A stretch of DNA of 40,852 bases, taken from positions 1-40,852 of the IMG/VR virus record IMGVR_UViG_3300028326_000306; one strand, written 5' to 3'. The notes beneath the pieces are model-generated. The model saw only the letters and a list, made by a program, of their open reading frames with translations, ran no database searches and had not been told where the DNA came from. Source of the stretch: a virus (taxonomy: Duplodnaviria; Caudoviricetes). Below, piece after piece: positions 527-37,535 of the stretch. The translations under genes and the position numbers were made by a program. Numbering within the stretch: position 1 is the first letter of the stretch; each line of letters opens with the position of its first letter.

Positions 527-1807
527 TTATAATGTCCAAACTTTTCCCGTGGTAGTTGATGTGCATTTGGTTTTAGTTATACCTTCAATCTTAAACTCCG
601 AGGCTTTTATCACTTTTGGTACTTGCAGAACAACAGATGTTCCGCTATTATCACTATCTCTATAGCATATTAGGACATGATTAGAATCAATTAAGACTGC
701 TGAAATGCCAGTTGTATTGGCTGCATTAAACACTGTTTCAGTTCCTACCGTGATTGTTGTTCCATTAATAGTAAGAATTATAGTTGTTCCATAAAAATTG
801 TTTACAAAATCTGAATAGCATACTAGAACATGATTTGAGTCGATAAGGATTGGTTGATTAGTAAATGTAAGTCCTGCATTAAACACTGTTTCTGTTCCTA
901 TTGTGATAGTAGTGCTACTGATAGTTAGCATTTGTGCTGTTCCATAATTTTTATTACCTTCATCTTTATAGCACACTAAAGCATGAGTTGAATCCAATAG
1001 AACTGCTGAAATAGAACTTGTACTGGCTGCATTAAATACTGTTTCTGTTCCTATCGTGATTGTTGTACCGCTGATAGTAAGTACAACTGCTGTTCCATAG
1101 CTATTATTACCTGCATCTTGATAAAATACAAAAGCATGTGCTGAATCCAATACAAATACTGAAATATATGCTGTACTACCTGCATTAAAGAATTTTTCTG
1201 TTCCTGCTGTAACTGTTGTCCCACTAATAGTTAAAATCTGTGCAGTTCCATAACCACCGTATCCATTATCTTTATAGCACACTAAAGCATGAGTTGAATC
1301 CAATAGAACTGCTGAAATAGAACTTGTACTGGCTGCATTAAACACTGTTTCTGTTCCTATCGTGATTGTTGTTCCATTAATAGTAAGAATTATAGCTGTT
1401 CCATAGCCACTGTTATCACTATCTCTATAGCATATTAGGACATGATTAGAATCAATGAGAACCACATTTTTATCCTCTGTATTACCGGAATTAAACACCG
1501 TTTCAGTTCCTGTTGTGATTGAAGTACCGCTGACAGTCAAAACAACGGCTGTTCCGTAATTGCTATTGCCTCCATCCTGATAGCATACCAAAGCATGCAT
1601 TGAATCTATAAGAATTGCTGAAATGTAATTTGTACTAGCTGCATTAAACACTGCTTCTGTTCCACTTATTAAATTATTGTAATCATTTAAAAATTCCACA
1701 AATGTATTAGCACTTATATCTGCTCCAGACGCACGGTATTCACCAATAATACCGTTTATTACATCACTACTGCCTCCGCCACGTCTCGTAATATAACAAT
1801 CTCCCAT
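527..1807 (-). CDS. Putative receptor-binding protein with seven 51-aa repeats (probable beta-propeller)
   Basis: N-terminal MGDCYITRRGGG resembles clostridial phage fibre-tip proteins; seven copies of GTExVFN...(L/I)DSxH(A/V)LxxYxD...YGT; directly downstream of the tail fibre gene. Confidence 0.7.
   Translation of the reverse strand: MGDCYITRRGGGSSDVINGIIGEYRASGADISANTFVEFLNDYNNLISGTEAVFNAASTNYISAILIDSMHALVCYQDGGNSNYGTAVVLTVSGTSITTGTETVFNSGNTEDKNVVLIDSNHVLICYRDSDNSGYGTAIILTINGTTITIGTETVFNAASTSSISAVLLDSTHALVCYKDNGYGGYGTAQILTISGTTVTAGTEKFFNAGSTAYISVFVLDSAHAFVFYQDAGNNSYGTAVVLTISGTTITIGTETVFNAASTSSISAVLLDSTHALVCYKDEGNKNYGTAQMLTISSTTITIGTETVFNAGLTFTNQPILIDSNHVLVCYSDFVNNFYGTTIILTINGTTITVGTETVFNAANTTGISAVLIDSNHVLICYRDSDNSGTSVVLQVPKVIKASEFKIEGITKTKCTSTTTGKVWTL
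625..1670. repeat. Seven tandem 153-bp coding repeats
   Basis: About 100 bp at 964-1065 matches 1270-1371 with one mismatch (offset 306 = 2x153); 41 bp at 651-691 is identical to 1416-1456 (offset 765 = 5x153). Confidence 0.9.
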
Positions 1808-3703
1808 TTATCTCACCACCTTAATCTGAATAGGAATAGAAACCGTCAACGCTTCTGATGTATATATCTTTAGAGTGTCATCAGCAGTGACTGTCATCTT
1901 ATATATCTTGCTCCAGGCTCCGTCTATCGTCTCGTCTTTTGCTCCGTCTACTGGAACATAATCTACAGTAGGCATGTCGCTTGCAAGCAATCCTGATATT
2001 GTAAGGTTTTGCGTGAAGTATCCTGTGTTGTCGGTCCAGGATGTACCTATGGTTGATGAATAATTAATTACTGCTGCTTTACCGCTGAGTTTATTATCTG
2101 CCTCAGTCTTTGTATAAGCATCACCGATTCCATATCCGGCTAGAGTTGTTGCACTGGCGGCTTTGCCATTGACTGTTGTAGTGAGAGCATCTATCAGTGC
2201 TTTAAGAGAAACACCCTGTGCAGCAGACAGAGGCTGATTTGCAACATTGGTAGTCAGATTATTGATGATTGCCGAAACAGAAACCTTATCTGTTGTTACC
2301 GACTCTATCAATGTCCTATTTGATTTGATGTATGCCACAATTTCCGACAGCTGGTCCAGTGTAGTATCATCACTGTTTGCTAATGCGTTGAGTCTTGTTG
2401 TCAGATCAGCAATCAATGTACGGATGTCAGAGTGAGCATTATTAGCAGCGTTATGTGTGCTAAGTGCCGTAGACGCTTGGTTAGCTAAAGATGTATCTTG
2501 ACTGTCAACATAGGTCTTATCAGCCTTAATGCTTAAATCAGGCTTGCCGCTAAGATCACTATACAGCCCTGATTTAGCAACAACAGCAAGATCAGCATTC
2601 TTAGCATATGGAGTCAGATCTATGTTTTGTGCATTCTGAGCAACCTTAGATGCCAGTATATCTATCTCGGCCTGCGTCAGATCGGCATATGTCATCTTGT
2701 CTCCCTTGTCTCCTTTGGGCAGCACAAAGTTAAACTTGGCTGCTGTCGGAGTGCCGACATTGGAAACGCTCGGAATATCACCTGATGTTACTGTCCCTGC
2801 CGCTATCGTAGCTGCAGCTCCAGGATCGCCTTGCGGTCCCTTTAAAACTGCGAGCTGATCTGCCGTAAAATCCGTATACTTAAAAGCATCGCCCTTGTCA
2901 CCTTTTAATCCAAGCAGCTGATCTGCCGTAAAATCCGTATAGATAAATGGATCGCCCTTATCGCCTTTAGGTCCAGTCAGTGCCGCAAGCTGTGCAGGAG
3001 TAAAATCCGTATATACAAACGGATCACCTTTGGCTCCCTTGAGTGCTGTCAGCTGATCTGCGGTAAAATCATCGTAAACAAATGGATCGCCTTTAGGTCC
3101 CTTCAAGCCCAGCAGCTGATCTGACGTGAAGTCAGTGTAAATAAACGGATCGCCCTTATCACCTTTATCACCCTTAACATAGCCAAAATCGAAAGACTGA
3201 CCGGCCTTGTTGGTAACGATCAGATGATTGGATGCATCAATTTTTATTGTGTCGATCTCACCTTTAATTGCCTCTCTCGCCTGCTCAGCAGAGTTAATCA
3301 GCATGTTGATGATCTGATCGTATATGTCCACCGTAGGCGGATTTATAGTGTCACCTGCTGAATAACTAGTTTCGTTTATCATTACCGGAAATGGGATACA
3401 TTTTAAATCCGGTTCAATGGAAACGGTACTGGTAGTTATTACGGTTCCATTAGCCATACCAACTACAGAAACAACAAAACCTCCCTGCTTAATAACCTCC
3501 CAAGGAATCACGCACCTATCATCAGTCAATAAAACAGGTTTTACCAATTCCTTCCTTGTAAAAATAGCAGTCTTAGTCATTCCATCCCATTCTGAGGAAA
3601 ACGTGAAAACAGCATTCAGATAGTTTTTAGCATCTGATACAATTATGTTATGCTCTTGAACCACTGCAGTCTGACCATTCACTGTTATGTGTATATCATA
3701 CAT
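1808..3703 (-). CDS. Tail fibre protein with BppU-like N-terminus and collagen-like repeats
   Basis: N-terminal FTFSSEWDGMTKTAIF motif, G-X-Y triplets interleaved with FxYxDFTxxQL, coiled-coil LDQLSEIVAYIK and ATTLAGYGIGDAYTK fibre motifs. Confidence 0.85.
   Translation of the reverse strand: MYDIHITVNGQTAVVQEHNIIVSDAKNYLNAVFTFSSEWDGMTKTAIFTRKELVKPVLLTDDRCVIPWEVIKQGGFVVSVVGMANGTVITTSTVSIEPDLKCIPFPVMINETSYSAGDTINPPTVDIYDQIINMLINSAEQAREAIKGEIDTIKIDASNHLIVTNKAGQSFDFGYVKGDKGDKGDPFIYTDFTSDQLLGLKGPKGDPFVYDDFTADQLTALKGAKGDPFVYTDFTPAQLAALTGPKGDKGDPFIYTDFTADQLLGLKGDKGDAFKYTDFTADQLAVLKGPQGDPGAAATIAAGTVTSGDIPSVSNVGTPTAAKFNFVLPKGDKGDKMTYADLTQAEIDILASKVAQNAQNIDLTPYAKNADLAVVAKSGLYSDLSGKPDLSIKADKTYVDSQDTSLANQASTALSTHNAANNAHSDIRTLIADLTTRLNALANSDDTTLDQLSEIVAYIKSNRTLIESVTTDKVSVSAIINNLTTNVANQPLSAAQGVSLKALIDALTTTVNGKAASATTLAGYGIGDAYTKTEADNKLSGKAAVINYSSTIGTSWTDNTGYFTQNLTISGLLASDMPTVDYVPVDGAKDETIDGAWSKIYKMTVTADDTLKIYTSEALTVSIPIQIKVVR
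2821..3175. repeat. Five ~60-bp collagen-like coding repeats
   Basis: Five copies of GxKGD(P/A)FxYxDFTxxQLxxL(K/T) in the fibre, also visible as DNA repeats such as GCTGATCTGCCGTAAAATCCGTATA. Confidence 0.85.
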
Positions 3704-3777: not shown

Positions 3778-6700
3778 CTATTTTTCGTATGTCTCATAGC
3801 CTCCGGCAATAAGACTCTTGGTTTCCCATCCGTACTTGTAATGATAGTTCCAAGCCCTTCTCCATGCCTCAGATGTGTTGCCGGCCTTAAGCAGCTTACC
3901 TAGCTCGTTGACAGCCATTTCTCGCTTCACACCCTTTATCACAGTCTTTTCGATATAATCCTCACTTACACCGTTATTCCGCATGATAGCGATTATTTTC
4001 TTGGCCTCATTAGTTTTTCCTGCAAGCATAGCATCCTTGTACTTGCTATACAGACTGCTCCGGAATTTGTTCTTGGTATTGAATCCGTACTGTCTTAATA
4101 TCGACAGCACTGACTTTGCCGTTGAATAATCAGATTCGTCTATAGCATCGTAGTAAACGGAATTAAGTGCTGACTTCAGCTTACCTTTGGCCTTGTCCTC
4201 CGGATAACCTGCAGCAACCATGTTCTCATATGCATCAGTTATTGATCCGGTATCGCCTGACTTTATAGCCTTGTCAATGCCGCTTGAGTATTCCTCGGAT
4301 ATTTTGGAATTCACATAATCAGTGATTTCCTTTTCCTTATATCCATGCTCAAGCATATCCGCCTTGATCTTTTCTGCCGCCTCTGTGTCACCGGCCTCTT
4401 TAGCAGCCATGAAGTCACGTTTGAAAACTGCTGCGTTCTTTTTATTGTCTATGGAGTAGTACATCCTATGCTTGATATAGTCAGTCTTAGATTTTGATAC
4501 AACCATTTTATATGTCTGCTCCCATATTGACTCACCGTCACGCATCACATTGTACAATGGTATTCCTGTCACATCGGATATACCCTTGCTTGTTGATTTG
4601 ATCTTCTGATACAGTGACAGCTTGCTGTTCTGCCAATCAGTCACCGCCTTGACCAAGTTGGTTATACCTTCCATATCCAGCCTTGTCACATCGTAGCCCT
4701 GGAAAAGCGAGTTAACATCCCTCAGCATAGGCAGCAGCGTAAGCGGATTTACATTCTGTCCAATGTTCTGAATGCTGTACTTCTGCCATTTCTCAAGGAA
4801 TGTTTTGTCCTTGTCATCGTCATCAGCTCCTCTCAGAGCGTCAATTAATGCCGCTACTATTGATACAGCTGCAGCGTTAGCCATGAATACTGATATAACC
4901 CTTGCCACTCTCTTGGTAGCACTTGCTTTTTTTCCGGCCTTGAAGTCATGTCCTGCAATAAGCAGCTCTGTCCTCAACAGATTATACGTTTTCGTAGGCT
5001 CCGCCATGAATGATGTTACGATCTTACTCATGGTGTCATTGTTACGCATAAACTGCGATCTGTGGAACACGCTGTCAACTACCTGAGTACGGTCAATAAC
5101 ATAGCTGAAACGCTCGTTTACGGCCTTCCAGTAATCTTCTGATCCAGGCTTCAGATCTTTTCTCGTAGCGTTAATCTCATGCTTAACAGCATTCCATATC
5201 CAAGCCCAGCCAATATCATCAGCTTTTCCGTAAGCTCCCATGAAAATTTTATCTGCAGTCGATTTGTTGTCCATGAAAATATCTTTCATGTCACGGCTAA
5301 CATCAGTGTTGTAGAAGCCCCAGCTCTTCCACTTGGCGATTGGTGATTTCTCCTGCATCTCATTAATGCTGATTCCAAGGTTAGTAGGATTAGCAAGATA
5401 CTTCTGATCTATCACAGCTCCGGCTCTGACTATAGCTGTAGGCTGCTGGACCAAAACCCTCAGATTCAGGCCCAATGTTCCCTGCTTCATTTTCCTTAAG
5501 AAGAAATTGATAAGGTTATGGTCGCTGATGCTCGTATAGTTTTGGTTCAAGTCATTCATGAAACGCTTAATGTAAGCGTTGGCTGACTTTCCATAAGCCT
5601 TTCTGATGCTGTCCTGCACCGATGCTGTTATGATTTTGTCCTGCATCTGCTTGTAATTGTAGACTCTCTCAAAGTCCGTTATTGCCGGCACTAGGCTGTT
5701 GTACATCGACATGGTAGTTGCATGCTGCGTCAGCACGTTGAAAATGTCATCAATAACTATAGGATTATTGGCATTGACCACAGTGTTCTTGGTAAAGCCC
5801 ACGTTCTTGATCTTTGCCGGCTGCCTGTTATCAAACATTTCATTAAGGAATGCATCTGCAGATTTTATAGGGAAGTAATTCTGTTCTGTAAATTTACGGT
5901 ATCCGTACAGCCTCATGGATGTTTCATTTCCCCAGTCAGCACATGTAGTGTTCAGATAGTCCTGGATTTCCTCTGCAGCTGCTCTCTGCTCACGGCTAAG
6001 CGTTGATATTATTTTCTGCAGGTCCTCATAGGTAACTCTCACTTTGTTCTGAGACAGATTTTTAGAGTATACTCCCTTCATGATTTCCTGCCGCTTGCCG
6101 GCAAATGTCTGCATAGGCGATGCTACGATTCCTGATCCAAGCAGATGTGTCAGTGCCTGCTGACGCTTGCTCAGACAGTACAGCGACATTATCTGCACCG
6201 GCTGCAGCTCTATTGTCTCACCGCTTGACACTGTAAAGGATTCAGCTCTGCCATTATTCTCCCATTCCTTGATAGCGTATTTTGATCCGAGTCCCTCAAC
6301 ATACTGCTTTATCTGATCTACATTCATGATGTTCTTGTCAAATGCGTTTCTCATGTTCTGATAAAGCATATTTTCTGTGCCGCCCATAACCGCAAACATA
6401 TCAGAAGGATTTACGTTTGACTCATTAAGAAATCTCATAACCTCCGGAATGAAGCCTGACTTGTCAGCCTTGTCGCTATGCGTAGCCGCCTCAGCTATTA
6501 CCGCATCACCTAGCTCAGCTATGTTCTGCTTAATCCCCTCAGAGAAGGCTCTGTTAATGGTTGACAGCGAATATCTGATCTTTTTAATGATGTGGTATAC
6601 ATCCGCCAGCTCATCAAGATTCAGGTCCTCAAACCTTCTGCCATCCATAGCCTCTGCCAGCAGTTTCAGCTGATCTGCCATTTCCTCATCCGGCTCCAAT

Positions 6701-9700
6701 GGGGAGTCATCCGCTTTAATGGTTTCTGAGTAAGCATTGCTGAGTGCGATGAATCTCATAGTACGCTTGGACGGACCGTTCTTTTCTGTATAAGCTCTGC
6801 TTCTCTTAGTGCTGAAGTCAAAACCAGCCAACATTTCTGCTATTGCCTTTTTATATCCTTCAGGTATATGTCTGTCATCTGCCGGCTCAAGCAGCGTATG
6901 CGACATCCATTCAGCGTATGCTTCGATCCTTGATGTGTAATACTTGCGATTAGTCTTGTCCTTGTTGTTTTTCTTTACCGCATTCAGCTTGGCCTTGTAA
7001 CGAGCTTCTATTCTGTCCTTGTGCTTTTGGATCACAGCATTTCGCTCTGATACATACTTCTCAGTTTTCTCAGCCAGCTTACGCTTGTATGTTTCACGCT
7101 GCTCCTGCAGCATTTCATCATACTTGGCTTTAGTCTTGTCAGCGTATGTCTGATGCGGCTCCGTAGAATATACGGCATCAAGTATTTCCTTGGCTACAAA
7201 AGGTGTAAGCTCATTCTGCTGACGCATGCTGTAGGTTTCGTACCACGGCTCCATGTCATTCATCATGCTTGCTATGTTGCTGATCTGATCCGCTTCGTTG
7301 GTATATGTGTCTGCGTCAAAGAGGCCAGGATACTCAGCAGCAAGGTCATTGTACATTTCATCTACGCTATAGCCCTCAGTTGTGGAAAGTTTAAACCACT
7401 TTGAATTGCGTCTTTTGAAATCAGCAAATCCCTTTTCTCCGCCAAAGTCACCGATATAGCTGCTGTCTATGCGAAGAGTTCTGTTCTTCAGATCTCGCTT
7501 GATGCTCTCGTAGTTATCCTCATAGGAATCATGCATCATTTTGTACTTTGAAAGTATCATTCTAGCTGCACCCTCTGCAAGATCGTAAAGCATTCCGGTT
7601 GACATATCCTCGCCCTTATTAAGCTCAGTATATATTTCCTTGAATACCTTTTTAATTTCACCATGCAGAGCTGAATCCATATGGCCTAGGTTATCCTCGA
7701 TGATTTCGCTGATCTTCTTATTCATAACCTTTTCTTCAGGTACCGGAATCTTAGTGAGCCTAGTCTCAGCTTTTAGGAATGCGATCTTTTCGTTCAGATT
7801 TTCTATTTCCTTATTCTTCTGATTCAAGAGCTTATCCTTGTCAGATTTCATCTGAAACTTCAGATCGTATTCTGCAGCTGCCTGATTAACCTTTTCAAGT
7901 CTGTCATTCTCACCATATGTCAGATAGTCAATATCATTGCTGTCAAGTAACTGCTTTAAAGTATCGGATGCTGTTTCCGGAATTACTGCCGCTTTAATCT
8001 CGCTTAATTCTACAGCCCTCTTAGGTTTTGCTTCAAAGTATTCAGTAGGCATGTTAGCTATATCATTTACCAAAGATACTATTTCTTTTGCTATGCCAGC
8101 TGGATCAGATGCATTGGACCACTTTTTAATATAGCTGCTGATAGATGCTTCACTCTTGGATATTCTAACAGCGTCAATTATAGTAGCCATTGCATTATCA
8201 AGTGCTATAAATTCATTGTCCTGTCTCTTGTCTTTTATTTTGTTTGCTATTTTGGATAATCTTTCCCCATACTCTTCCTTATATTTTTTATAAGTATCCG
8301 GATCGGCATGAGTCAAGCGGCTGGAATCAGATTTGATCTCTTTAATGCTCTTATAATCTTTAGCCGATACACCCCATATTCCCATAGCACTGAATAGAGT
8401 ATCACCGTTCTCCTGCCCCTTCATCACCTTTACAACATTTTCAAGATTCTCCTCATAATGAAGCGTTTTGAAACTTTTTCTGTTACCGGAGCTTGTAAAT
8501 GTGTCCACGTTTGGTTTTCTTATGCCTGATGATTTTTCAATGCCTGAGAGTAATTTTTCCAACCATTTCTCATATTCGTTCTGATCTACAGCGTTATTGA
8601 TTTTGTCATATGTACCCTCAGTATCTGTGACTTCTTTAGTTGTAATTCCGCCATTAGACTTATAGTTCAAAGCGTGTCTTATGAGTAGTCCTAAACTATA
8701 ACCATTCATACTCTCAACCAATTTGTCAATTTCAGATTTTTTAAGTCCGTTTTCGGCAAGATATTTGCTGTATACCTTTATTATTTCAGGCTTGTTATTC
8801 TTTGCCCATGAAGGCCAAGCTACAGGATTGATTGACATCTGATCCTCAAACGATTTCATCAGATTAGGAGCATTATCAATGAAATACTGGGACAGTTCTT
8901 TTTCATTATCGCTGATTTCTGTAGTTTCAGTTTTATGGATCAAGTCAATAGGATGACCAGTAGTATCAGCAAGAAACATGTTTTTCATGGCTGTATCTGT
9001 TTTCAGATACTCTATCAAACCAGCCTCACCGCCATACCTTTCCAGCCGTCCATCCATATCGGATACCAAATTGTAAGGTGTGCTTCTGAATTCGCTGCGA
9101 ATCAGTCCCTTGCGTTCCAATTCATAAAACTTGTTGGAGTAATCGTTCAGCCTAGAATCATTAACCTCGTATTCCAGGTGCGGATAGATAGGTGTCCATG
9201 CATCACCGCCATATACTTTATTTGAACTCTTGGCCGGATCAATAGTATCTTTATCAAAGATCAATGAAATGTCACCGTACTCGTTATGATCGTAATCATC
9301 CTTGATAATTGCTATGCTTGGCATTGGAAGTCCGCCCAGCTTGATTGATTTCAGCAACTCAGACTCTCTGATGTTATGGACCGCAATAAGATTCTTATTT
9401 GTTTCCACCGGCTGTTTCATGCTGAAACGTATATCCGGATCGTCCGTAGGATTCTCATTGTCTACCGATTTAACCTGTTCAGGAGAAAATGCGATGTAAA
9501 TGTCAGAAGCCCCTTGAATATCCGGATCACCGTACTCGCCTATATCAACAATATCACGGAATATAACACCGTCATATCCGTTGTTCTGTGCATATTCAGC
9601 CCAGTAACGTGTGTTGTGGCCCTCCGGTAAATTCCCTTTTGAGTCTAAGCTGAAGTTTTCTATGCTATATCCGCTGTTTTCCTCTGCCTTAGTCACGGCA

Positions 9701-12700
9701 TCCTCAGCAGCTGATTCAGAGAAACCATATCCGGTAAGAAATTCTATAGCCTCATTTCTGTCCTCTGTAGAAATTGAATCGTCATCATAATCAGCACCGA
9801 TCTCAAATGAATAAGTATTGCCGAATTTCCCAAAACCCTTGATGTAATTAAGTGAAATGTAATCAATCCATTTTCCTTGATCGTCACCAGTGCTGATATA
9901 ATTCCAATGCTGTCCGTTACCCTCAATGATCATAGGATTTTTCAGATTAAGATAAACCTCATAGTTTCCCTCATCGCCCATATCATCGCCTGAAAGATCA
10001 AATATTTCATCTGTATCGTTATAAGTTGCAGCTACCTCTATATCATTAGTAAAGAATAGCGATCTTTTATCATCAGATTCTTTAGGATCAAATACAGTAA
10101 AACCACCATTACTCGTTGCATGATAAAGTGATGCCAGCCTCCCATCTCTGTCAAGAGCCATGCTGTCCGCATACTTTTTCTTTTGTCCGTCTGTCAGTTT
10201 ACGGCCCTTGCTGTCCTCATCACCGTTAGGAGAATTCTTTAAGCAATACTTCCTTCTGTTATTCCCTTTATTATTTGTTCCTCCGTTTTCCCATTTATTG
10301 CCTTTATTAATTCTTTCGCCTTTTCTTCCTTTTTCTCTTCCGGTACTTCCCCCAGGCAGCCTATAATCAGTAGCTGAGTATCTCGAGATAAGTTCATTTT
10401 CTGAGTAATCAGTATTAATTCTATCCGAGTACCAAATAGGTTCCCATCCATTAGCTTCTTCATAAAGTATGCTCCTCCTTATCATATCAATTTTTGTTTC
10501 AGTATGTAGATTAATAGTAACCACTTGTTCTATTGAAGGGTCATAATAATTTCCATTTGTATAAATCAGTTTATTATTGATTCCAAACTCATCACCAACT
10601 GGAATAATGAACAAACCATCTTGATTTTTTGTAAACTGTGTGCCTAGATGTTTATCGCTAATTTTATCGAAAAGATTTGATAATTCTTTTTCTGTGAGCA
10701 AACCGTTGTTGATTGCCCATCCATATTTATTATACTCCCTAATCGTGTATTTTCCAAGCTGTCTGTCAGATGAATCCTTCATGGAGAATCTTGTGTCCGG
10801 TCCTACCCTCTTGGCTGGATACTCATTAAAGTTCATTGTTCCCTGAATAGCATCATTTTGTCTTGAGCTTACGGCATAATCCTCATCGACAAAGTAAATG
10901 ACATCCACTATGGTTCCATCCATTCCCATAATTCTGTTCATTTCTTTTCTTACTTCCAAGCTGCTGGTAGAAATATAAACCGTACTTCCTCCAAGCTCTA
11001 CCATTGACTCTTTAATCCATTTAGACTTGTCTTTCAGCTTGTTGCTGAATTCGCTTATAGCCCTAACCTCACCCAAACTGCTTACATATATTGCTGTTGA
11101 AATGTCATCGCTAACCTGTACAGACTTAGCCGCCTCAGCTAAACTAGTATAACTTGTTATTTTCTTATTCAAAAGCGGATGTTTAATCTCAGGTGTCATG
11201 ATCATATCCTTGGCACCTTTGCTCAGATCGGTTATAGATATTTTCAAATCTCCATCAATGCAGCCGAATTTATTATGGTTGATAATAACATGTCCGTTAA
11301 ATTCCAATCCGCATTTTTTGAAGTATTTAGATAACGTATTTGTTGCCGATACATCTGCTGCAGAAGGTTTTGGTGTTCCTGAAGGATGATTGTGAAGCAT
11401 GTAAATTGATGTCGCTCCTCTGCTTGCTGCGGCACGCATAAGTGAAGGGAAAAACTTGCTCATATCACCGTCAAATGTTTGAGACGTAGAAGGAAGCCTG
11501 CAGGTTATGCCGGTCTGAAATACTACCTTATTGTCAGCATTAAGGAAAATATACCTCATGGTCTCGAATCTTGGATCACGGAATACCTGAGCTATTTCTG
11601 CCATTTCAGCTGTTGAATTAACTTTTCTGCCTAATATGGATGTTGATCCATCCTTAATCAGTGATCTCGTGAATCCCAATGCTACGAGCTTAGTTTCATT
11701 GTCACTGCCGGTATATGAAGCTGCAGCCAAATCATCCAATGACTCCTTGGCAATTTCTATTCCGGAGTCTGTCATATTGAACTTGATGCTCATCTGCTCA
11801 TCGCTTATAGCCAGCTGCTTCTTACGATCTGCAATATAACTGGAGTTTTTCATAGCAAATCTTGACTTAGTAGACTTAGCATTGAATTCATAATTCTTAA
11901 TATACGCATTTTTTCTGTCATTGATCTTGTCGGTAAGGAATGCAGCTTTCAGCTCTGAGTCATTGAAATTAAGCGGCCTGCGTTTATATCCAGGAAGTTT
12001 CATAACTTCTTCTGAATAGTCCTGCCCTTTTTCATATGGTGTCAGATCACTTGGCTTGCTGACCGGTCCAGGTTTGATTTTATGCTCCTCAAATCTGAAG
12101 TCTCCTCCAAGTCTCGGCATCATCTCAATTCCATTTTCCTTACATATCTGCCGGCACTCTTCATCAGTCAGAATATCTTTGATAATCATTGATCCGGAGA
12201 TATACCAAGGGAATGAATTCTTATCTATTGCATTGGTTCTGTATCTGTAATATCCATCTTTAATGGTATAAGGAATACCTGCAAGTGCGTGAGAAAACTT
12301 GCCGTTGGATTTCATACCATACTCGTAAGCCTCCATCTGATAGTCATTGTCTGCAGCAAATTCAACCCTTGCAAATACTATATCCGGATTAAGGAATATT
12401 GTAGGCCCCTTTTCACTTCCATTTTTCTTGTGGCTTGATTCACCGGCTGTCACTCCACGCTTCTTTAACCATCCGGCCCACTTCTGAGCTTTAGGATCAA
12501 CGTTAAACTGAGTAGCATCAGGCACCGGTCCCAAGTGCCAGCCTGGTCTCCATGCCAAAGTATTGCCCTTGCTTGTAACCTTAGCTCTGCCCATCTGATT
12601 CATTTTTATGTTTCCGTCTGCGTCCATATCCGGTACACCTGAATCAGCATCCAGCCATACTCCTCCAGGTGTTCCATATCCTTTTGGATTTTCTACCATT

Positions 12701-15489
12701 GGAGGATACAGCTTTCCGTTCTTAACCTTAAAGGCTTTATATCCAATCATGGTATTCTGTGGTGGTGCAACTTTTCTCAGTTCAAAACGATCTATGCTTT
12801 CATTGTATTCAAGCTCCTTGTCTATGGTTCCGTAAAGTCCCTTAAACCATATCTGCTCCGCCTGCTCTACAATGCCCTGGTCCTTCATCCACTGTCCATA
12901 GTATCTGCTGTTCTTTCCTACAACTATGTCTTTTATGGCCTCCAGCATATCCTTGATAATGCTGTAAATCTTCTCGCCAAGTGTTCTGTTTTCTTCGATA
13001 AGATTCTGAATTGCCTGCTCATCGGTCAGGAAAATATCAGCAGAGTTAGCTACGAATTCTTCCTCAGCTTCTGTTCTGCTTAGCTTTCTGCCGCCCTTGC
13101 TGTAATCAGTAACGATCTCATTAATTCTGTTCTCATATCCCTCAGCATCATCCTTATAGTAATGCTGTACTAGGAAATCCTTAAGCTCCTTATACTCAGC
13201 CGGAGATAGGTCCCTGATGCGATGCGTCAGCTCATGCTTAAGCACGCTCATCAGCGGCTGCGTTGATGATGCAGACAGATAAATAGTGCCATTGTCATAA
13301 TATCCGTTAGCAACATCCTTTAACTCGCCATTGTCGATCTGCTTCTTGATCCAAATATCTGTTCTGAGATTTTTGGCGGCCTTGCTAAGTGCATCAATGG
13401 TATCCTTGTTTTCCTTGATCCATACCTCATCAACATCCTTATCAATGGTCAGCTTGCCCTCAGCCTTGTTCTTTACGGTCTTGACGTTGCTCTTGCTTTC
13501 CTCTATGGTCTGATTTTCTCTCTCGGCCTCCATCTGACCCTGCTTGAAGATTGCAGCCTTGACTGTCATTGGCATCAGATCGTTGTACTTAGTCTCAACA
13601 CTTGAATAGGATTCTCCGTTTCTGCCGGCATCAAATACTTCTGAAAATGCCACAGTGTACTTAAGACCGTTATCAAGGTTATCCAGCTTGTTAACACCCT
13701 GATCGAATATTGACTGTATTTCCGGAGGGAATGACTCGCCTATAGCCTTGATTTTGTTTCTGACATTCTCCTTAGCCTGCTGCTGAACCTGGTCCTTAGT
13801 GATCACAGACTTAGATGCAATCAGCCCAGTAAGAGTTTTCCTTGTTTCTGTGTTAGTTGCTGGAAGAGTAATGCCGGTCATGCTTGACAGCACAGCTCTA
13901 GCTGGTGCGTTCTGTACGCTAAGAGCAGCTACATCCATAGCTGTTCCTGTTCCATTTACTATTCTTGCTATTGCCATTGAGTCAGACACTATCTGATCCG
14001 TTGACGCACCATAGCTCTTGAGAGCCTGAGATGCTTCGTCAGCCGTTTTCAGCACGTTTGAATACATCACGTTGTCTATTTCGTCAGAAACAGTTTTTTC
14101 CCTTTTCTGAGTCTGATAACGTGATACATCTCCTACTACAGATTTCATCTGCTGACGCTGCACTGCCTCTGCCTGTCTGCTTTCCTTATCAATCTGTCTT
14201 GCCACATCCATGTTCTGCTTGAATGTTTTAAAGGCCAGTTCATCGATCTGCGTGTCATATATATGACCGTCAGAGTCAGCCTGGGCTTTAAGAGTCTCCG
14301 CATACTTATATGCATCAGTGTCCTCACCCTGCTTAAGTGCGGAATTTATAATGCTGTTCTTTTCCTCATCGGTATAGGATTCCTTTTCCGGATCAACACC
14401 GGCTACCTTGTTAACAGCCTTGCCAGCAAGATGTGCCGATCCGCCTAAGATTCCTGCAGCTGCAGCTCCACCGGCAAAGTCAAGCCCCATCTGCTTCAGG
14501 CCCTCGGCTGACATTACATCCTTCTTGTAGTTTCCGGCTACGGAAACATGATTATACAAAGAATTTGAAAGCGGCTGCAGAAGATCAGCTGCCACTTCCT
14601 CAAGTCCCTCACCGGTCATACCCACAGCACCTCTTGACATGTTGCGGATCGCCTTATAAACAGCCTCACCGTTGGCTCCGTCATTAACCATTTTCTTAAT
14701 AACGCTTAGTCCTGCAGCTTTATTTGCCAGCTTATAAGCTATTTTTTCGCCTGCACTATCCAAGAGACCTGTTGTGCCGGTAAGTTTCCTCATAGGTCCA
14801 ATCAGGCCTCCACCGAGCAGCTCAGTTCCTACCTGTATACCTGCGTTGGAAAGACCGGCAAGTTTCTGCCTTGTCTCGCTGGCACCGGAGTTTCTCGCAT
14901 CCCTTGATGACTGGCCGTAACTTGTAAGCCCCATGCCCATAAGCATGTTTCCGCCACCTATAATGGCATCCTCGCCCATGTTTAGCAGATTGCTGTATAA
15001 TCCCATAGCGAATTTCTGCTTGCTGTTAAGGCCGTCATTAGCCGCTTGGTCATAAGCCTGAGCCTTAGCATGGTAGGCATCACTCATTTTTCTGACTTCA
15101 GACTTATTCTGCTTAGCAGATTTTTCAAATCCCTTCTGGTAGAATTCCTTCTGACTGTCGCTCTTTAATCCAGTATAGCTGCTGCCACGGTCCTGCCTGT
15201 ACTCTTTTGCATTGGATGTATCTCTTGTCCTTGATGTAGGTCCCACCTGATTCTTCCATCCACTACCTATCTCTGCCTGCTGTCTGCCATTGTGACCGGT
15301 AATGTTGCTTGCCAATAGCTCTAAATAATTAGATATATTATCATAGGTTACAGATTTAGTAGCTTTTGTGATTCTGTTTCCTTTGGTGTTACTGACCGGT
15401 TTTCTGATCTGATCATTCCTGGCCTGCTGTTCCTCAGCATTCCCTCTGATCTCGTTCATCATATCATCAAACGATTTTTTCTTAGCCAT
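3778..15489 (-). CDS. Giant (3903 aa) polyvalent virion/ejection protein: zincin metallopeptidase, JAB/RadC, ADP-ribosyltransferase and unknown domains
   Basis: Gly/Ala-rich hydrophobic N-terminus with GEGLEE; HELTH at aa 752 (13222-13236) with downstream EEEF; JAMM motif HNHPSGTPKPSAAD; YH...FFT...VYL...GYDG...QVKS ART signature; long helical C-terminus; position after the tail nozzle where podoviruses encode core proteins. Confidence 0.85.
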   Translation of the reverse strand: MAKKKSFDDMMNEIRGNAEEQQARNDQIRKPVSNTKGNRITKATKSVTYDNISNYLELLASNITGHNGRQQAEIGSGWKNQVGPTSRTRDTSNAKEYRQDRGSSYTGLKSDSQKEFYQKGFEKSAKQNKSEVRKMSDAYHAKAQAYDQAANDGLNSKQKFAMGLYSNLLNMGEDAIIGGGNMLMGMGLTSYGQSSRDARNSGASETRQKLAGLSNAGIQVGTELLGGGLIGPMRKLTGTTGLLDSAGEKIAYKLANKAAGLSVIKKMVNDGANGEAVYKAIRNMSRGAVGMTGEGLEEVAADLLQPLSNSLYNHVSVAGNYKKDVMSAEGLKQMGLDFAGGAAAAGILGGSAHLAGKAVNKVAGVDPEKESYTDEEKNSIINSALKQGEDTDAYKYAETLKAQADSDGHIYDTQIDELAFKTFKQNMDVARQIDKESRQAEAVQRQQMKSVVGDVSRYQTQKREKTVSDEIDNVMYSNVLKTADEASQALKSYGASTDQIVSDSMAIARIVNGTGTAMDVAALSVQNAPARAVLSSMTGITLPATNTETRKTLTGLIASKSVITKDQVQQQAKENVRNKIKAIGESFPPEIQSIFDQGVNKLDNLDNGLKYTVAFSEVFDAGRNGESYSSVETKYNDLMPMTVKAAIFKQGQMEAERENQTIEESKSNVKTVKNKAEGKLTIDKDVDEVWIKENKDTIDALSKAAKNLRTDIWIKKQIDNGELKDVANGYYDNGTIYLSASSTQPLMSVLKHELTHRIRDLSPAEYKELKDFLVQHYYKDDAEGYENRINEIVTDYSKGGRKLSRTEAEEEFVANSADIFLTDEQAIQNLIEENRTLGEKIYSIIKDMLEAIKDIVVGKNSRYYGQWMKDQGIVEQAEQIWFKGLYGTIDKELEYNESIDRFELRKVAPPQNTMIGYKAFKVKNGKLYPPMVENPKGYGTPGGVWLDADSGVPDMDADGNIKMNQMGRAKVTSKGNTLAWRPGWHLGPVPDATQFNVDPKAQKWAGWLKKRGVTAGESSHKKNGSEKGPTIFLNPDIVFARVEFAADNDYQMEAYEYGMKSNGKFSHALAGIPYTIKDGYYRYRTNAIDKNSFPWYISGSMIIKDILTDEECRQICKENGIEMMPRLGGDFRFEEHKIKPGPVSKPSDLTPYEKGQDYSEEVMKLPGYKRRPLNFNDSELKAAFLTDKINDRKNAYIKNYEFNAKSTKSRFAMKNSSYIADRKKQLAISDEQMSIKFNMTDSGIEIAKESLDDLAAASYTGSDNETKLVALGFTRSLIKDGSTSILGRKVNSTAEMAEIAQVFRDPRFETMRYIFLNADNKVVFQTGITCRLPSTSQTFDGDMSKFFPSLMRAAASRGATSIYMLHNHPSGTPKPSAADVSATNTLSKYFKKCGLEFNGHVIINHNKFGCIDGDLKISITDLSKGAKDMIMTPEIKHPLLNKKITSYTSLAEAAKSVQVSDDISTAIYVSSLGEVRAISEFSNKLKDKSKWIKESMVELGGSTVYISTSSLEVRKEMNRIMGMDGTIVDVIYFVDEDYAVSSRQNDAIQGTMNFNEYPAKRVGPDTRFSMKDSSDRQLGKYTIREYNKYGWAINNGLLTEKELSNLFDKISDKHLGTQFTKNQDGLFIIPVGDEFGINNKLIYTNGNYYDPSIEQVVTINLHTETKIDMIRRSILYEEANGWEPIWYSDRINTDYSENELISRYSATDYRLPGGSTGREKGRKGERINKGNKWENGGTNNKGNNRRKYCLKNSPNGDEDSKGRKLTDGQKKKYADSMALDRDGRLASLYHATSNGGFTVFDPKESDDKRSLFFTNDIEVAATYNDTDEIFDLSGDDMGDEGNYEVYLNLKNPMIIEGNGQHWNYISTGDDQGKWIDYISLNYIKGFGKFGNTYSFEIGADYDDDSISTEDRNEAIEFLTGYGFSESAAEDAVTKAEENSGYSIENFSLDSKGNLPEGHNTRYWAEYAQNNGYDGVIFRDIVDIGEYGDPDIQGASDIYIAFSPEQVKSVDNENPTDDPDIRFSMKQPVETNKNLIAVHNIRESELLKSIKLGGLPMPSIAIIKDDYDHNEYGDISLIFDKDTIDPAKSSNKVYGGDAWTPIYPHLEYEVNDSRLNDYSNKFYELERKGLIRSEFRSTPYNLVSDMDGRLERYGGEAGLIEYLKTDTAMKNMFLADTTGHPIDLIHKTETTEISDNEKELSQYFIDNAPNLMKSFEDQMSINPVAWPSWAKNNKPEIIKVYSKYLAENGLKKSEIDKLVESMNGYSLGLLIRHALNYKSNGGITTKEVTDTEGTYDKINNAVDQNEYEKWLEKLLSGIEKSSGIRKPNVDTFTSSGNRKSFKTLHYEENLENVVKVMKGQENGDTLFSAMGIWGVSAKDYKSIKEIKSDSSRLTHADPDTYKKYKEEYGERLSKIANKIKDKRQDNEFIALDNAMATIIDAVRISKSEASISSYIKKWSNASDPAGIAKEIVSLVNDIANMPTEYFEAKPKRAVELSEIKAAVIPETASDTLKQLLDSNDIDYLTYGENDRLEKVNQAAAEYDLKFQMKSDKDKLLNQKNKEIENLNEKIAFLKAETRLTKIPVPEEKVMNKKISEIIEDNLGHMDSALHGEIKKVFKEIYTELNKGEDMSTGMLYDLAEGAARMILSKYKMMHDSYEDNYESIKRDLKNRTLRIDSSYIGDFGGEKGFADFKRRNSKWFKLSTTEGYSVDEMYNDLAAEYPGLFDADTYTNEADQISNIASMMNDMEPWYETYSMRQQNELTPFVAKEILDAVYSTEPHQTYADKTKAKYDEMLQEQRETYKRKLAEKTEKYVSERNAVIQKHKDRIEARYKAKLNAVKKNNKDKTNRKYYTSRIEAYAEWMSHTLLEPADDRHIPEGYKKAIAEMLAGFDFSTKRSRAYTEKNGPSKRTMRFIALSNAYSETIKADDSPLEPDEEMADQLKLLAEAMDGRRFEDLNLDELADVYHIIKKIRYSLSTINRAFSEGIKQNIAELGDAVIAEAATHSDKADKSGFIPEVMRFLNESNVNPSDMFAVMGGTENMLYQNMRNAFDKNIMNVDQIKQYVEGLGSKYAIKEWENNGRAESFTVSSGETIELQPVQIMSLYCLSKRQQALTHLLGSGIVASPMQTFAGKRQEIMKGVYSKNLSQNKVRVTYEDLQKIISTLSREQRAAAEEIQDYLNTTCADWGNETSMRLYGYRKFTEQNYFPIKSADAFLNEMFDNRQPAKIKNVGFTKNTVVNANNPIVIDDIFNVLTQHATTMSMYNSLVPAITDFERVYNYKQMQDKIITASVQDSIRKAYGKSANAYIKRFMNDLNQNYTSISDHNLINFFLRKMKQGTLGLNLRVLVQQPTAIVRAGAVIDQKYLANPTNLGISINEMQEKSPIAKWKSWGFYNTDVSRDMKDIFMDNKSTADKIFMGAYGKADDIGWAWIWNAVKHEINATRKDLKPGSEDYWKAVNERFSYVIDRTQVVDSVFHRSQFMRNNDTMSKIVTSFMAEPTKTYNLLRTELLIAGHDFKAGKKASATKRVARVISVFMANAAAVSIVAALIDALRGADDDDKDKTFLEKWQKYSIQNIGQNVNPLTLLPMLRDVNSLFQGYDVTRLDMEGITNLVKAVTDWQNSKLSLYQKIKSTSKGISDVTGIPLYNVMRDGESIWEQTYKMVVSKSKTDYIKHRMYYSIDNKKNAAVFKRDFMAAKEAGDTEAAEKIKADMLEHGYKEKEITDYVNSKISEEYSSGIDKAIKSGDTGSITDAYENMVAAGYPEDKAKGKLKSALNSVYYDAIDESDYSTAKSVLSILRQYGFNTKNKFRSSLYSKYKDAMLAGKTNEAKKIIAIMRNNGVSEDYIEKTVIKGVKREMAVNELGKLLKAGNTSEAWRRAWNYHYKYGWETKSLIAGGYETYEK

Positions 15490-24585: not shown

Positions 24586-24623
24586 GTTTTATCATTTTGC
24601 GGAAATTAATGTGACTCCCTACC
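24586..24623 (-). promoter_or_regulatory. Putative late promoter for scaffold/capsid
   Basis: Minus strand GGTAGGGA-GTCACA-N15-TGA-TAAAAC, overlapping the stop codon of the Prp gene; the -10 element is imperfect. Confidence 0.55.
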
Positions 24624-24936
24624 CTTCCAGCAATATCACATGCTGCGGATACTGCATCTCAAGCTGCTTTAAACCGATCATCATAAACTCTACAGCCTTG
24701 ATTATGTCTATCACATATATGCCTAGCTTTGCTTTAGGTATGCAGCATCTAAAGTATCCATCCTCAGCGTCTATAGCTGCGTCTACCGGCAGACTGCTGA
24801 CCAGCGTAGCAAACGTGCCGGTCAGCGTTGAAACAGCAGCACACACTATGTCATTACCGTCTGAGCTGTATTCAGCGTGACCGCTTGCCTCAAATATGAT
24901 GTTATCTTTATCGTTTTTTAGCGTAATCTCTGTCAT
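24619..24936 (-). CDS. prp: Prp-family (DUF464) cysteine protease
   Basis: SGHA...DIVCAAVS catalytic His/Cys motif and C-terminal GLKQLEMQYPQHV; lies between portal and scaffold. Confidence 0.92.
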   Translation of the reverse strand: MTEITLKNDKDNIIFEASGHAEYSSDGNDIVCAAVSTLTGTFATLVSSLPVDAAIDAEDGYFRCCIPKAKLGIYVIDIIKAVEFMMIGLKQLEMQYPQHVILLEG

Positions 24937-34752: not shown

Positions 34753-35747
34753 GTTATCTGCCTTTCTGTCGGTTCGCTGACTTCATTCAGCAGTATCTTT
34801 CTGAAGATACTTTCAAAGATAGGCACTACGATTGAATTGCCTGCTTGCTTATATAATGCCGTGTTTTGCTTACCCTTAACTCCAGGATTGGCCTTAAGAG
34901 CGTTTTTATAATCCTTGTCCGAATATCCCATAAGCCTCCAGCATTCAAGCTCTGTAAGTATTCTGTAGCTTCCGTCTGATCTCTTAATAATTCCACTGTT
35001 AGGGCAAACATTCTGCTTTGTAGTTATAGTCATTGCATAGTTTTTTATAACAGACAGCTTATTTATTGGTGCATTGTCATAATTATTGGGATCAATTTTA
35101 TTGGCCATGCTTGGAGCTTTAATAGTATATTGATCCGGTACCTCACTGTCCGGCTGGATATAATCCCATACATTTCCCATTGGTTTACGTATCAGATCAT
35201 CAAAGTCAAACGCATCTTTTCCGAGAACAGATACTGTAAAAACTCTCTGCCGGTTCTGCGGAATACCAAACTCTCTTGCGTCAAGAATATCAAATGAATT
35301 GGTATATCCCATTGACTCCATTTCCTTCAGATACTTGTTGTAATTGTGAATCATATATCTGCTTCTCACATTCTTAACGTTTTCCCAAATTACATATCTC
35401 GGCTTCCATGCTCCCATCTGTCTAATGATGTTGATTGTTTCCCACATCAGACTGGACCTTGTATTGCTCCCCTCATCACCGCCTTGCGGTACTCTGCGAT
35501 TGTAACCGGCTATGGAAAAGTCCTGACAAGGGCTGCCATGTATCAGAATGTCCGGTTTAAGGTTCCATCCGACCACAGACTGCGTTTTATATGACAGTTC
35601 GTCAGTAAACATCGCATTGTATGATCTTACTGCTTTTTCGTCTATCTCAACGTAATCTATGGCCTTTACCGGTATTCCAATATTTCTTAATGCTACTCTT
35701 GGACTACCAACCCCACCAAATAATTCTAAAATCTGTACTGGTTTCAT
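34743..35747 (-). CDS. DNA (cytosine-5)-methyltransferase
   Basis: Motif I FGGVG, IV GSPCQDFS, VI ENV, VIII QNRQRVF, X QAGNS. Confidence 0.95.
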   Translation of the reverse strand: MKPVQILELFGGVGSPRVALRNIGIPVKAIDYVEIDEKAVRSYNAMFTDELSYKTQSVVGWNLKPDILIHGSPCQDFSIAGYNRRVPQGGDEGSNTRSSLMWETINIIRQMGAWKPRYVIWENVKNVRSRYMIHNYNKYLKEMESMGYTNSFDILDAREFGIPQNRQRVFTVSVLGKDAFDFDDLIRKPMGNVWDYIQPDSEVPDQYTIKAPSMANKIDPNNYDNAPINKLSVIKNYAMTITTKQNVCPNSGIIKRSDGSYRILTELECWRLMGYSDKDYKNALKANPGVKGKQNTALYKQAGNSIVVPIFESIFRKILLNEVSEPTERQITWT

Positions 35748-36595
35748 TATTTGACTACCCCATCAGCATCAATGCTCACCTGCTCCAGCGGCTTCAGCTG
35801 CGGAGTATCTGACTGATCCGCATCATCTTCCTCAGTAACCTCATACTCAGCCTGTACAAGATCAACATCCTTGTCATCGATCACAGCATTTACTGTAGTT
35901 TCATCTGATGTCATAGCTCTGACAAAGTCTGACTTAAGCGGAGCATATTTCAATGCCTTCTTGATCACTGTCTTTTTCGCCATCTCATCCCACGAGTCCG
36001 ACCATGCCGGTGAGTTCTTAGCCTTGCTGAACTTGTTTCTGTGTGCCTCAATGTCTGCTGCCGACATGACCTCAAAACCATAGCCTCCGGAAACCAAGTG
36101 ATAAACCGCATACACCCATGCGACCTTGCCCTTGTCAGCATCCATAGTTGGGATATGTCTGAGCTTAGGTTCCAAGCCGTACTCAAACTCAAAGGTATCA
36201 TTCTGATATACCACATGGGCCTCGATAGATTTCAATTCTCCTGATCTGTGAGCCAGCTCGATCAGACCTCTATAGCCGAGCTGGAACTGACACTCAGTTT
36301 TGTATGGAATAAGGTAAGCCTGTCCAAGCGGAGTGTTAGGCTCCAATCCGAGCTGAGCTGCATTAAGCAATGCACCTGCAAAGGATGCAGGAGTACATCT
36401 TGCAAGCTGCGGATTCTGAATGACAGCTGTTGTAGCGATGCGTACAAATCTTTCCGGAGTCATCACTGCCGGCAATGCTTTAGCGAACTGAGGCTTATAG
36501 CTCTCAATCCAATCCTTAATAGTTGGCTGCTTGCTTGTTTTCTCTTCCTTGCTTATAACGGCATTGCCGCTTTTTACGTTTACTGAATTTGTCAT
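35747..36595 (-). CDS. recT: RecT-family single-strand annealing protein
   Basis: AQLGLEP..LGQAYLIPY, FQLGYRGLIELAHRSG, EMAKKTVIK. Confidence 0.95.
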   Translation of the reverse strand: MTNSVNVKSGNAVISKEEKTSKQPTIKDWIESYKPQFAKALPAVMTPERFVRIATTAVIQNPQLARCTPASFAGALLNAAQLGLEPNTPLGQAYLIPYKTECQFQLGYRGLIELAHRSGELKSIEAHVVYQNDTFEFEYGLEPKLRHIPTMDADKGKVAWVYAVYHLVSGGYGFEVMSAADIEAHRNKFSKAKNSPAWSDSWDEMAKKTVIKKALKYAPLKSDFVRAMTSDETTVNAVIDDKDVDLVQAEYEVTEEDDADQSDTPQLKPLEQVSIDADGVVK

Positions 36596-36596
36596 C

Positions 36597-37535
36597 TTAC
36601 TTTACCTCCTTGGTTTTCAAAACTCTTGTTTCGCTTGTTTTACAAACTGCTTCATATACATCAGGATATTTTTCCTTTAGTGCCTTGCTGTCCACGGTTT
36701 GCCTTGACTGGCTCTTCCAAGTGACCACATAGTGTTCTGTGCTTCCCTCTGTGCAGTCTCCAAGTTTGGAGCAAATCTCCGCCTTAATACTTTTCTCTTG
36801 TGCCTCGATACGTTTTTTCATTTCCTGCACTGACAGCAGATTCTTGATTAAATCATCAGATTCAGTAAGCACTATACTCAGACCGTTATCATGTGGATGC
36901 AGCTTATTTAATGTTTCAAAGCTGCTGTCCGATCCATCAGCATCAGGCTGTATCTTAGTCAGCACATTATTGTTCCAAAACTCTATCTCGCTGGCTAGCA
37001 GCATAGCTATGTCATCATCATTCCTTGCGACCTCATACCAGTAAAATCCCTTGCCAAACTGAAGGATCGCCAGGTACATCTTGTCATAACCCATGACCGC
37101 CATATAATGCTGGAGCTGGCAGTAATACTGTTTTGGGATATCCCCTGCTCTCAGATCGTACTTGCCGAACTCGCTCATAGTCTTGCATTCCAGTGCGGCA
37201 TTCTCGCCTACCACAGTACGGTCAATGTTAGCAGTTAAAAAATCGTAGTCATCATGTACATACATGAAGTTGTCTACACGGACCTTCTTGCCGGTTGCTT
37301 CCATGAAACGGTCCGCCACGTACTGCTCAAGATCACGGCCCAGCCTCATACGTTCATTGTCATTGTCCGGCTCACCGTCAAAATATCCCATCTTGTCAGC
37401 CCACAGCGTGAGCTTATCCTTCCAAGGATTCATTCCCACGCATACGGCAGCATCGCTTCCGCCTATGCTTTTCTTTCTGAGCTGCAGCCAATCATCATGA
37501 GTCATCTTAGTGACATTAGCTAATTTCTTTCCCAT
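36597..37535 (-). CDS. YqaJ-type viral exonuclease
   Basis: WLQLRKKSIGGSDA, ANIDR, LECKT, YYCQLQHYM; adjacent to recT. Confidence 0.95.
   Translation of the reverse strand: MGKKLANVTKMTHDDWLQLRKKSIGGSDAAVCVGMNPWKDKLTLWADKMGYFDGEPDNDNERMRLGRDLEQYVADRFMEATGKKVRVDNFMYVHDDYDFLTANIDRTVVGENAALECKTMSEFGKYDLRAGDIPKQYYCQLQHYMAVMGYDKMYLAILQFGKGFYWYEVARNDDDIAMLLASEIEFWNNNVLTKIQPDADGSDSSFETLNKLHPHDNGLSIVLTESDDLIKNLLSVQEMKKRIEAQEKSIKAEICSKLGDCTEGSTEHYVVTWKSQSRQTVDSKALKEKYPDVYEAVCKTSETRVLKTKEVK

Follow-up and report, generated by a model that had tools for sequence, protein, structure and literature searches.

We found that the cargo domains of a giant phage protein are cassettes of many families, shuffled between a fixed part made up of the N-terminal region and a zincin and a fixed C-terminal part, and that the exchanges retained one short peptide per junction, crossing over inside this peptide at times. 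The junction peptide, [IVG]-[RK]-[FY]-[SQ]-[LIVFM], is a putative cut site of the protein's own zincin that would release separate enzymes, a reading we hold with slightly better than even confidence. The window, meaning the whole stretch of 40,852 bases that was analysed, is a provirus record rated 98% complete by CheckV. A PHROGs scan of 27 window proteins named an integrase, RecE/RecT, a methyltransferase, terminase, portal, capsid, an internal virion protein and tail fibres; because the scan named neither a tail tube nor a tape measure among these 27, the phage is probably podovirus-like. The giant gene is located within the virion genes, with terminase, portal and capsid upstream and a tail fibre downstream according to PHROGs. 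The features are as follows.

3778..15489, minus strand: gene for the giant polyvalent protein, 3903 aa (phrog_22978, E 1.5e-282)
13477..15489, minus strand: N-terminal region, aa 1-671, Gly/Ala-rich and kept in relatives; likely the packaging or membrane-conduit part
12820..13476, minus strand: zincin-like metallopeptidase domain, about aa 672-890, with H752, E753 and H756 (nt 13236-13222) and E811
12775..12789, minus strand: junction 1, RFELR (aa 901), a degenerate copy
11863..12774, minus strand: cassette 1, mobile among relatives (phrog_30118, aa 913-1126)
11848..11862, minus strand: junction 2, RFAMK (aa 1210)
10792..11847, minus strand: cassette 2, a RadC-like JAB domain (aa 1301-1408, Pfam) and a second, unnamed part
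10777..10791, minus strand: junction 3, RFSMK (aa 1567)
10756..10776, minus strand: seven-codon remnant of an ART cassette, left by a 519-nt in-frame deletion; the cassette is whole in relative L002
10252..10755, minus strand: cassette 3, with homologues in L002, L090 and P0090
10237..10251, minus strand: junction 4, KYCLK (aa 1747), within a low-confidence polar linker
9430..10236, minus strand: cassette 4, an ART-PolyVal ADP-ribosyltransferase-like domain (aa 1780-2015, Pfam)
9415..9429, minus strand: junction 5, RFSMK (aa 2021)
7861..9414, minus strand: cassette 5, a PBECR5 predicted nuclease (aa 2020-2216, Pfam) and a long C-terminal part
7846..7860, minus strand: junction 6, KFQMK (aa 2544), the exact restart point of homology to several relatives
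3778..7845, minus strand: conserved C-terminal region (aa 2549-3903), with a single transmembrane-like segment near aa 3531
24619..24936, minus strand: Prp cysteine protease, the second protease of the phage (PF04327, E 2e-16)
35747..37535, minus strand: RecT-like and RecE-like genes (PHROGs)

By every feature testable here, the giant protein is a phage-type polyvalent protein in the sense of Iyer 2017 (PMC5512222), a class in which, as the first-pass annotation had noted, zincin peptidases are combined with ART, RadC and other conflict domains. Unrelated activities share one polypeptide (ART-PolyVal, PBECR5 and RadC, all above Pfam cut-offs) and, as in the polyvalent proteins described there, the protein is giant, is encoded among virion genes and combines an MPTase with these domains. 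RadC appears only in conjugative-element proteins in the accessible text of that study, whereas here it lies in a phage protein. The N-terminus, which had been called hydrophobic, is Gly/Ala-rich and not strongly hydrophobic, with a Kyte-Doolittle peak of 1.1 (19-aa window); the maximum for the whole protein is 2.3, at aa 3531 in the C-terminal part. All five window cassettes recur in other giant proteins with borders near the motif positions, and homologues of cassette 2 have motifs at both borders in two relatives (L086 and P0095). Cassette 1 had no Pfam match, and an ESM Atlas search with cassette 3 gave no usable matches. A search of a phage collection for relatives returned only two unannotated fragments and no cultured, annotated relative.

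The first-pass annotation had read the junctions as [RK][FY]x[ML][KR]. This regular expression has exactly six strict matches in the protein, at the residues and nucleotides listed above, and the protein has one HExxH (HELTH, aa 752); the motif positions yield segments of 309, 357, 180, 274 and 523 aa before a final 1360 aa. Whole-protein shuffles gave a mean of 0.55 matches, with six or more in 0 out of 5000. Because the expression had been fitted to the window's own six copies, a held-out test on relatives mattered. We fetched relatives without use of the motif, either through a search with the conserved C-terminal region (the best 120 of 1695) or with patterns from that region (80 of 164 viral loci kept, plus 35 genome loci); after removal of redundancy, the bay between the zincin and the C-terminal region could be defined in 99 of 105 proteins. 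In the 98 non-redundant relatives, leaving out the query, the strict expression matched 89 times in the cargo bays (88,855 aa) and 12 times outside them, in 2.6 times more sequence (227,357 aa), and shuffled bays gave a mean of 10.3 matches (maximum 21). We rejected a chance origin of the motif on these figures (a mean of 0.55 in shuffles, and 89 held-out matches against about 10).

A strict match was present in only 49 of the 98 relatives because the family motif is broader than the expression. Thus, the six copies are real but the original definition was too narrow, the family consensus being the peptide given at the outset. A family core, [RK][FYW][SQAC][LIMVF], mostly preceded by I, V or G, with D, E or N as a further element, and defined partly post hoc, after inspection of the relatives, gave 237 sites in the 99 proteins. 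The aromatic position was F in 136 sites and Y in 96, and the next position was S or A in 193 and Q in 43. The weakest window copy is RFELR, which fails the family core. Methionine occupied motif position 4 in 4 of the 6 window copies compared with 14 out of 232 elsewhere, a dialect of the window's own. Unbiased counting of repeated 3-mers and 4-mers failed to recover the motif because the motif is degenerate. We also rejected a genome-wide cargo tag, since the 28 other genes of the phage that were checked gave motif matches at chance level only.

Further comparison revealed that cargo changes at the motif when homologous giant proteins are aligned. In an all-versus-all BLAST of 53 motif-masked bays, alignment starts clustered just after the motif and alignment ends just before it: 241-250 of about 1030-1110 alignment ends fell within 12 aa of a real motif, compared with 40-93 near sham masks displaced by +/-60 and +/-100 aa. 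Such an end lay within 12 aa for 83 of the 92 internal motifs. Bay segments grouped into recurring families in shuffled order (among the 44 of 53 architectures listed), and the 237 sites yielded 116 combinations of upstream and downstream cassettes. Pfam edges coincided with the motifs at junctions 4 and 5, with ART-PolyVal ending at 2015 and PBECR5 starting at 2020.

Individual insertions and deletions pointed the same way. One relative (L058) carries a 200-codon ART cassette that is missing in L060 and L071, and the crossover falls within the motif, over a run of six identical bases; several close pairs become identical again from the opening codon of the last motif onwards. In the window, a 519-nt (173-codon) in-frame deletion removed an ART cassette that is whole in L002, and exactly one motif remains. 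The payload bay proposed in the first-pass annotation, into which cassettes would plug, is borne out by cassette families that are shuffled, meet at the motif and keep exactly one copy per junction in natural indels. The RecT-like and RecE-like genes are candidate agents of the exchange. Many breakpoints between close relatives fell within cassettes, as expected from ordinary homologous exchange. The ends of the window's 173-codon deletion lie 7 and 2 codons past two motifs; this deletion and the breakpoints within cassettes count against the favoured reading.

The junction peptide is selected as a peptide, given that its codons are free. Among 55 genes with DNA available (108 sites), same-residue pairs shared an identical codon in 134 of 345 cases, against 123.7 expected from codon usage; all six arginine and all six serine codons were in use, and synonymous sites of the motif were as free as those in the rest of the gene. 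We rejected a site-specific DNA recombination site on this codon count. The idea that the motif is the swapping junction thus held for cassette exchange, which does occur there, but not as a conserved DNA recombination site.

By sequence comparison, the variant of the motif tracks the carrier protein and not the cassette. Residues through F/Y go with the upstream cassette, and later residues go with the downstream cassette or the carrier. At motif positions 3, 4 and 5, within-protein agreement was found in 173, 109 and 111 of 226 pairs, compared with 152, 82 and 55 in family-stratified permutations, respectively, and 0 of 2000 permutations matched the observed values. A further comparison took 74 cassettes, each with a close homologue whose carrier has a distant zincin: at the positions that differed, the other junctions of the carrier sided with the carrier in 54 cases and with the homologue in 12, with 23 ties; at position 5, overall agreement with the homologue (0.59) exceeded that with the carrier's other junctions (0.48). 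Q-, S-, P- and T-type variants occupied separate zincin clades in the 51 proteins with at least three sites, a pattern that kinship alone could produce, so that it is no proof of co-evolution with the zincin. The flanks of the motif form a polar setting in which hydrophobic residues are depleted (0.19 versus 0.30). When the ART cassette was modelled with AlphaFold2 (20 rows, mean pLDDT 70), both motifs lay outside the confident core, with block scores of 41-68 and 56 at the motifs versus 88-94 at the core ends, and neither formed a confident strand; Foldseek with this model found no match at E <= 0.001.

These data bear on the possibility that the peptide caps the ART-like domain structurally and was left behind by recombination, having spread as the only micro-homology common to the cassettes, and that nothing reads it. 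Such an origin would suit the frequent occurrence of I-R-[FY]-S behind ART-PolyVal, the Pfam PBECR5 model that itself begins on the motif (profile position 2-3), the indel that crosses over in identical bases inside the motif, and the RecE/RecT of the phage. Nevertheless, we consider it very unlikely: the synonymous sites are free, the upstream families that the peptide terminates include eight or more unrelated ones, its variant goes with the carrier, and in the ART model it is of low confidence and not a strand.

We also considered docking of the peptide on the host sliding clamp (DnaN), which by analogy might tether nuclease and ART modules to replication forks or block host polymerases; the idea was prompted by RFSLK, an APIM variant for which binding to the E. 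coli beta-clamp has been reported. RFSLK, the commonest form in the family, binds with a KD under 50 uM as a cell-penetrating peptide and, when expressed, stops growth (PMC7261172, as far as its accessible text goes). The same text, however, calls the clamp pocket promiscuous, and the window carries RFSMK instead of RFSLK. Although all six window copies end in K or R, only 124 of the 237 core sites do, and 17 proteins with at least two sites have none that does; moreover, the clamp pocket is conserved while the peptide drifts with the phage lineage. Clamp docking is, in our judgement, scarcely probable.

To place the peptide in a wider setting, we searched with a motif-free profile of the ART cassette, which found 30,511 representatives, and examined the best 150 of these. 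Across 561 ART tails in 210 proteins the pattern was hydrophobic-x-X-small, where X was F or Y in 384 tails and E, S, K, Q, R, H or A in the remainder. X was consistent within proteins (565 of 787 pairs versus 378), a figure inflated by tandem copies. I-R-[FY]-S follows ART-PolyVal even in very distant phages, so it may be partly structural there. In other distant phages the same tail reads I-T-E-S, I-N-E-S or L-T-E, and LTEQ also occurs; the T4 head protease gp21 cuts Alt at ITE and LTE (accessible text of PMC5694885). This match of ITES and LTEQ with the gp21 sites argues more strongly than anything else for a protease site in this slot, with the cut after X. The split between upstream and downstream residues at F/Y fits a cut at the same bond. 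The parallel also carries a warning, by the same analogy, that the enzyme need not be the zincin.

The known head-protease systems, T4 gp21 on Alt (ITE, LTE), SPN3US gp245 (A-X-E) and phiKZ gp175, resemble the window motif, as far as the accessible texts describe them, in their short sites with a hydrophobic P3 and a small P1' on cargo carried in the head, carriage being our inference for the window protein (PMC5694885, PMC10052503). Enzymes of the gp21/gp245 type are separate serine proteases that, in the same accounts, trim propeptides after Glu from many proteins. By contrast, the window motif is internal, has an aromatic residue (F, Y or W) at P1 in place of Glu, occurs in one protein only and has its candidate enzyme in cis.

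An enzyme other than the zincin could nonetheless cut the peptide, be it the Prp of the phage or of its host, or some head or host protease that the scans did not recognise. A Prp is encoded in the window, and the Prp sites at the scaffold and capsid N-termini of this phage are typical and end in R-F. Prp cuts between F and a small residue, as at L27 and phage scaffold and capsid proteins, and the I-x-E-S parallel points to maturation proteases. According to the accessible text of the same source, however, Prp binds Leu at P4 and P6, requires a small P1' and acts on N-terminal propeptides only (PMC9261936). Leu stood at P4 in just 3 of the 237 motif sites and P6 was polar; Tyr at P1 (96 sites) and Gln at P1' (43 sites) also speak against Prp. 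In relatives, F is preceded by Q or L at the Prp sites but still by R/K in the cargo motif, so that the two do not co-vary. We rejected Prp as the likely enzyme on the P4 count and this missing co-variation. A gp21-like protease was not found among the 27 PHROGs-scanned proteins, some of which had no assignment. Cutting by any of these other enzymes is distinctly unlikely in our estimate.

Turning to the zincin, we obtained an AlphaFold2 model with a pLDDT of 83.6 that contains the zincin layout of three strands, the HExxH helix and a downstream Glu helix. Its fold neighbours were weak (E >= 0.05, Z 5.7, rmsd 4.0-4.6 over about 145 residues), but the top ones, lethal factor and Pro-Pro endopeptidases, were all zincin folds, and the weak matches were to gluzincin endopeptidases; a PDB sequence search with the zincin alignment found no real relatives. 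E811 was invariant in 53 of 53 and 49 of 49 zincins, in a set picked by HExxH. An iterated profile gathered 214 zincin domains, with HExxH in 203, HExxE in 7, HExxxH in 2 and another form in 2; the variants inspected also kept the catalytic Glu and the third ligand. By sequence, the domain looks intact and its activity is putative. A complex prediction of the zincin with zinc and a 33-aa motif peptide scored 0.21 against a threshold of 0.32 and was not used as evidence.

Several observations count against cutting by the zincin. The first junction behind it is degenerate: of the 60 proteins in which it could be located, 10 have a full motif there, 31 a partial one and 19 none. In addition, 12 of the 99 bays have no core site. 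Proteins with HExxE, HExxxH or other variant zincins still carry junction motifs; these variants reflect either an altered metal site or dispensable catalysis. Zincin and tail type also disagree in places: 17 long proteins with F/Y-type ART tails lack a match to the zincin profile of the window family, and 8 proteins with other ART tails do match it. In the other direction, one protein without a zincin (P0180) has decayed junctions, a single case.

A different reader would bind the peptide and leave it uncut: the zincin-like domain, the C-terminal region or a portal or tail protein could use it as a repeated handling signal to pack, unfold or thread modules through the ejection channel. The positional and selection evidence suits binding no less than cutting, and the HExxE variants retain their motifs. 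Among the fold neighbours of the zincin are the anthrax EF and LF N-terminal domains, which are non-catalytic zincin folds serving translocation. The precedent of N4 virion RNA polymerase is close: an ejection protein of about 3500 aa that combines an HExxH domain with a large, helical C-terminal region, it is packaged uncut and requires its zincin region for encapsidation, though, unlike the window protein, it has a polymerase and the accessible texts describe no swappable bay (PMC13434306, PMC5512222). ArdC and TraC1 likewise have such zincins yet are transferred uncut (PMC5512222, accessible text), and antirestriction by ArdC is reported to be independent of protease activity (PMC7213743, accessible text). 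These cases also count against cutting by the window's zincin. On the other side stand the retained catalytic Glu and third ligand, the absence of the peptide from the other predicted ejection proteins of the phage, and the ART tails of other phages that match published cut sites (PMC5694885, accessible text). We regard an uncut handling signal as unlikely.

Another giant podophage protein, phi24B gp47 (2811 aa), is a polyvalent protein found in virions and proposed as an ejection conduit; it differs in that its peptidase is proposed to attack peptidoglycan, and we found no internal processing or junction motif described in the accessible text (bioRxiv 10.64898/2026.04.10.717836).

Under cutting by the zincin, the giant protein would be packed in the head and ejected along with the DNA, and an active zincin would cut in cis at the junction peptide, the likeliest bond being the one that follows the aromatic residue (I-R-F / S-M-K). 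Cutting could take place in the head or after entry, and we favour after entry; once released, the ART-, nuclease- and JAB-like domains would attack targets in host defence or housekeeping. The readable cleavage code proposed in the first-pass annotation has good indirect support from the sequences, in the form of peptide-level selection, polar linkers, carrier-specific variants and invariant zincin residues. We give about an even chance to a broader proposal, in which tailed phages of gut Clostridia would run self-cleaving polyproteins: a zincin in cis would recognise a five-residue code particular to the lineage, cut behind the aromatic residue and set free a range of freely exchangeable anti-host enzymes. 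Acquired cassettes would be re-coded to the protease of the carrier, and the code would be one dialect of a wider hydrophobic-x-P1/small grammar read elsewhere by other proteases.

Self-processing by the zincin is a known idea: Iyer 2017 proposed MPTase processing of polyvalent proteins and drew the analogy with RNA-virus polyproteins, and we found no junction peptide, cut position or cassette grammar in the accessible text of that study (PMC5512222). The junction motif is apparently new, as we found no description of it; our search of mainly openly accessible literature returned no paper naming it in phage proteins, although it may be visible in the Iyer supplementary alignments. Since 2017 the prediction has stood without a testable site. 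The motif supplies exact positions, a candidate bond, a catalytic residue to mutate (E753) and natural specificity variants, so that the self-processing question becomes a short biochemical project. Whatever its reader, the motif parses giant proteins into natural units, at 237 sites in 99 proteins so far and with 1695 homologues found in one search; if the code is true, it would delimit all cargo units, whether known or not, across well over a thousand relatives. Relatives lay in genomes of Senimuribacter, Gallibacter, Family XIII, Oscillospiraceae and Lachnospiraceae, gut Clostridia. Good anti-defence candidates of gut phages are to be found among the unnamed cassettes.

The commonest form in the family of the junction peptide [RK][FY]x[ML][KR], a candidate cut site between the cassettes of the giant protein, was RFSLK. 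This form is identical to an APIM peptide that PMC7261172 reports as a binder of the bacterial beta-clamp. In the zincin of seven full-length relatives (P0213, P0245, P0258, P0264, P0273, P0289 and P0336), HExxE replaces HExxH, and both the downstream Glu and the motifs are retained. P0180 is a 1947-aa ART+RadC protein that lacks HExxH, and its junction peptides have decayed.

The relative L002 is a remnant of the window's prophage that has lost about 26 kb, including the head genes and the zincin. Its deletion junction lies at L002:2872-2857, where window position 37481 is joined to 11736. Despite these losses, five motifs persist in L002 within an open frame of 2900 codons; its alleles of cassettes 4 and 5 differ from those of the window.

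Sites matching Prp, a cysteine protease and a rival candidate to the zincin, were found on two head proteins.

24619-24936: Prp gene, phage-encoded
23531-24433 and 22501-23505: scaffold and major capsid protein genes, respectively, with N-terminal sites matching Prp

At these sites, R precedes F in the window, and Q or L does so in relatives.

Among ART-PolyVal arrays of other phages, six (P0190, P0219, P0230, P0311, P0312 and P0340) had I-x-E-S junctions, which resemble T4-type head-protease sites. Further arrays had the junctions LxQS, ITAS, IRKS and INMA.

Many relatives carry an M23 peptidase (PF01551) at the C-terminal end, which is absent from that end of the window's giant protein (window 3778-4900). 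The latter has a transmembrane-like stretch near aa 3531.

Tail-fibre genes have diverged in L002.

527-3703 and 20987-21967: repeat-rich tail-fibre genes

A 326-aa gene among them has a sub-threshold Mtd_N match at its end. In the early region (window 33877-35747), a radical-SAM gene adjoins a DNA cytosine-methyltransferase-like gene.
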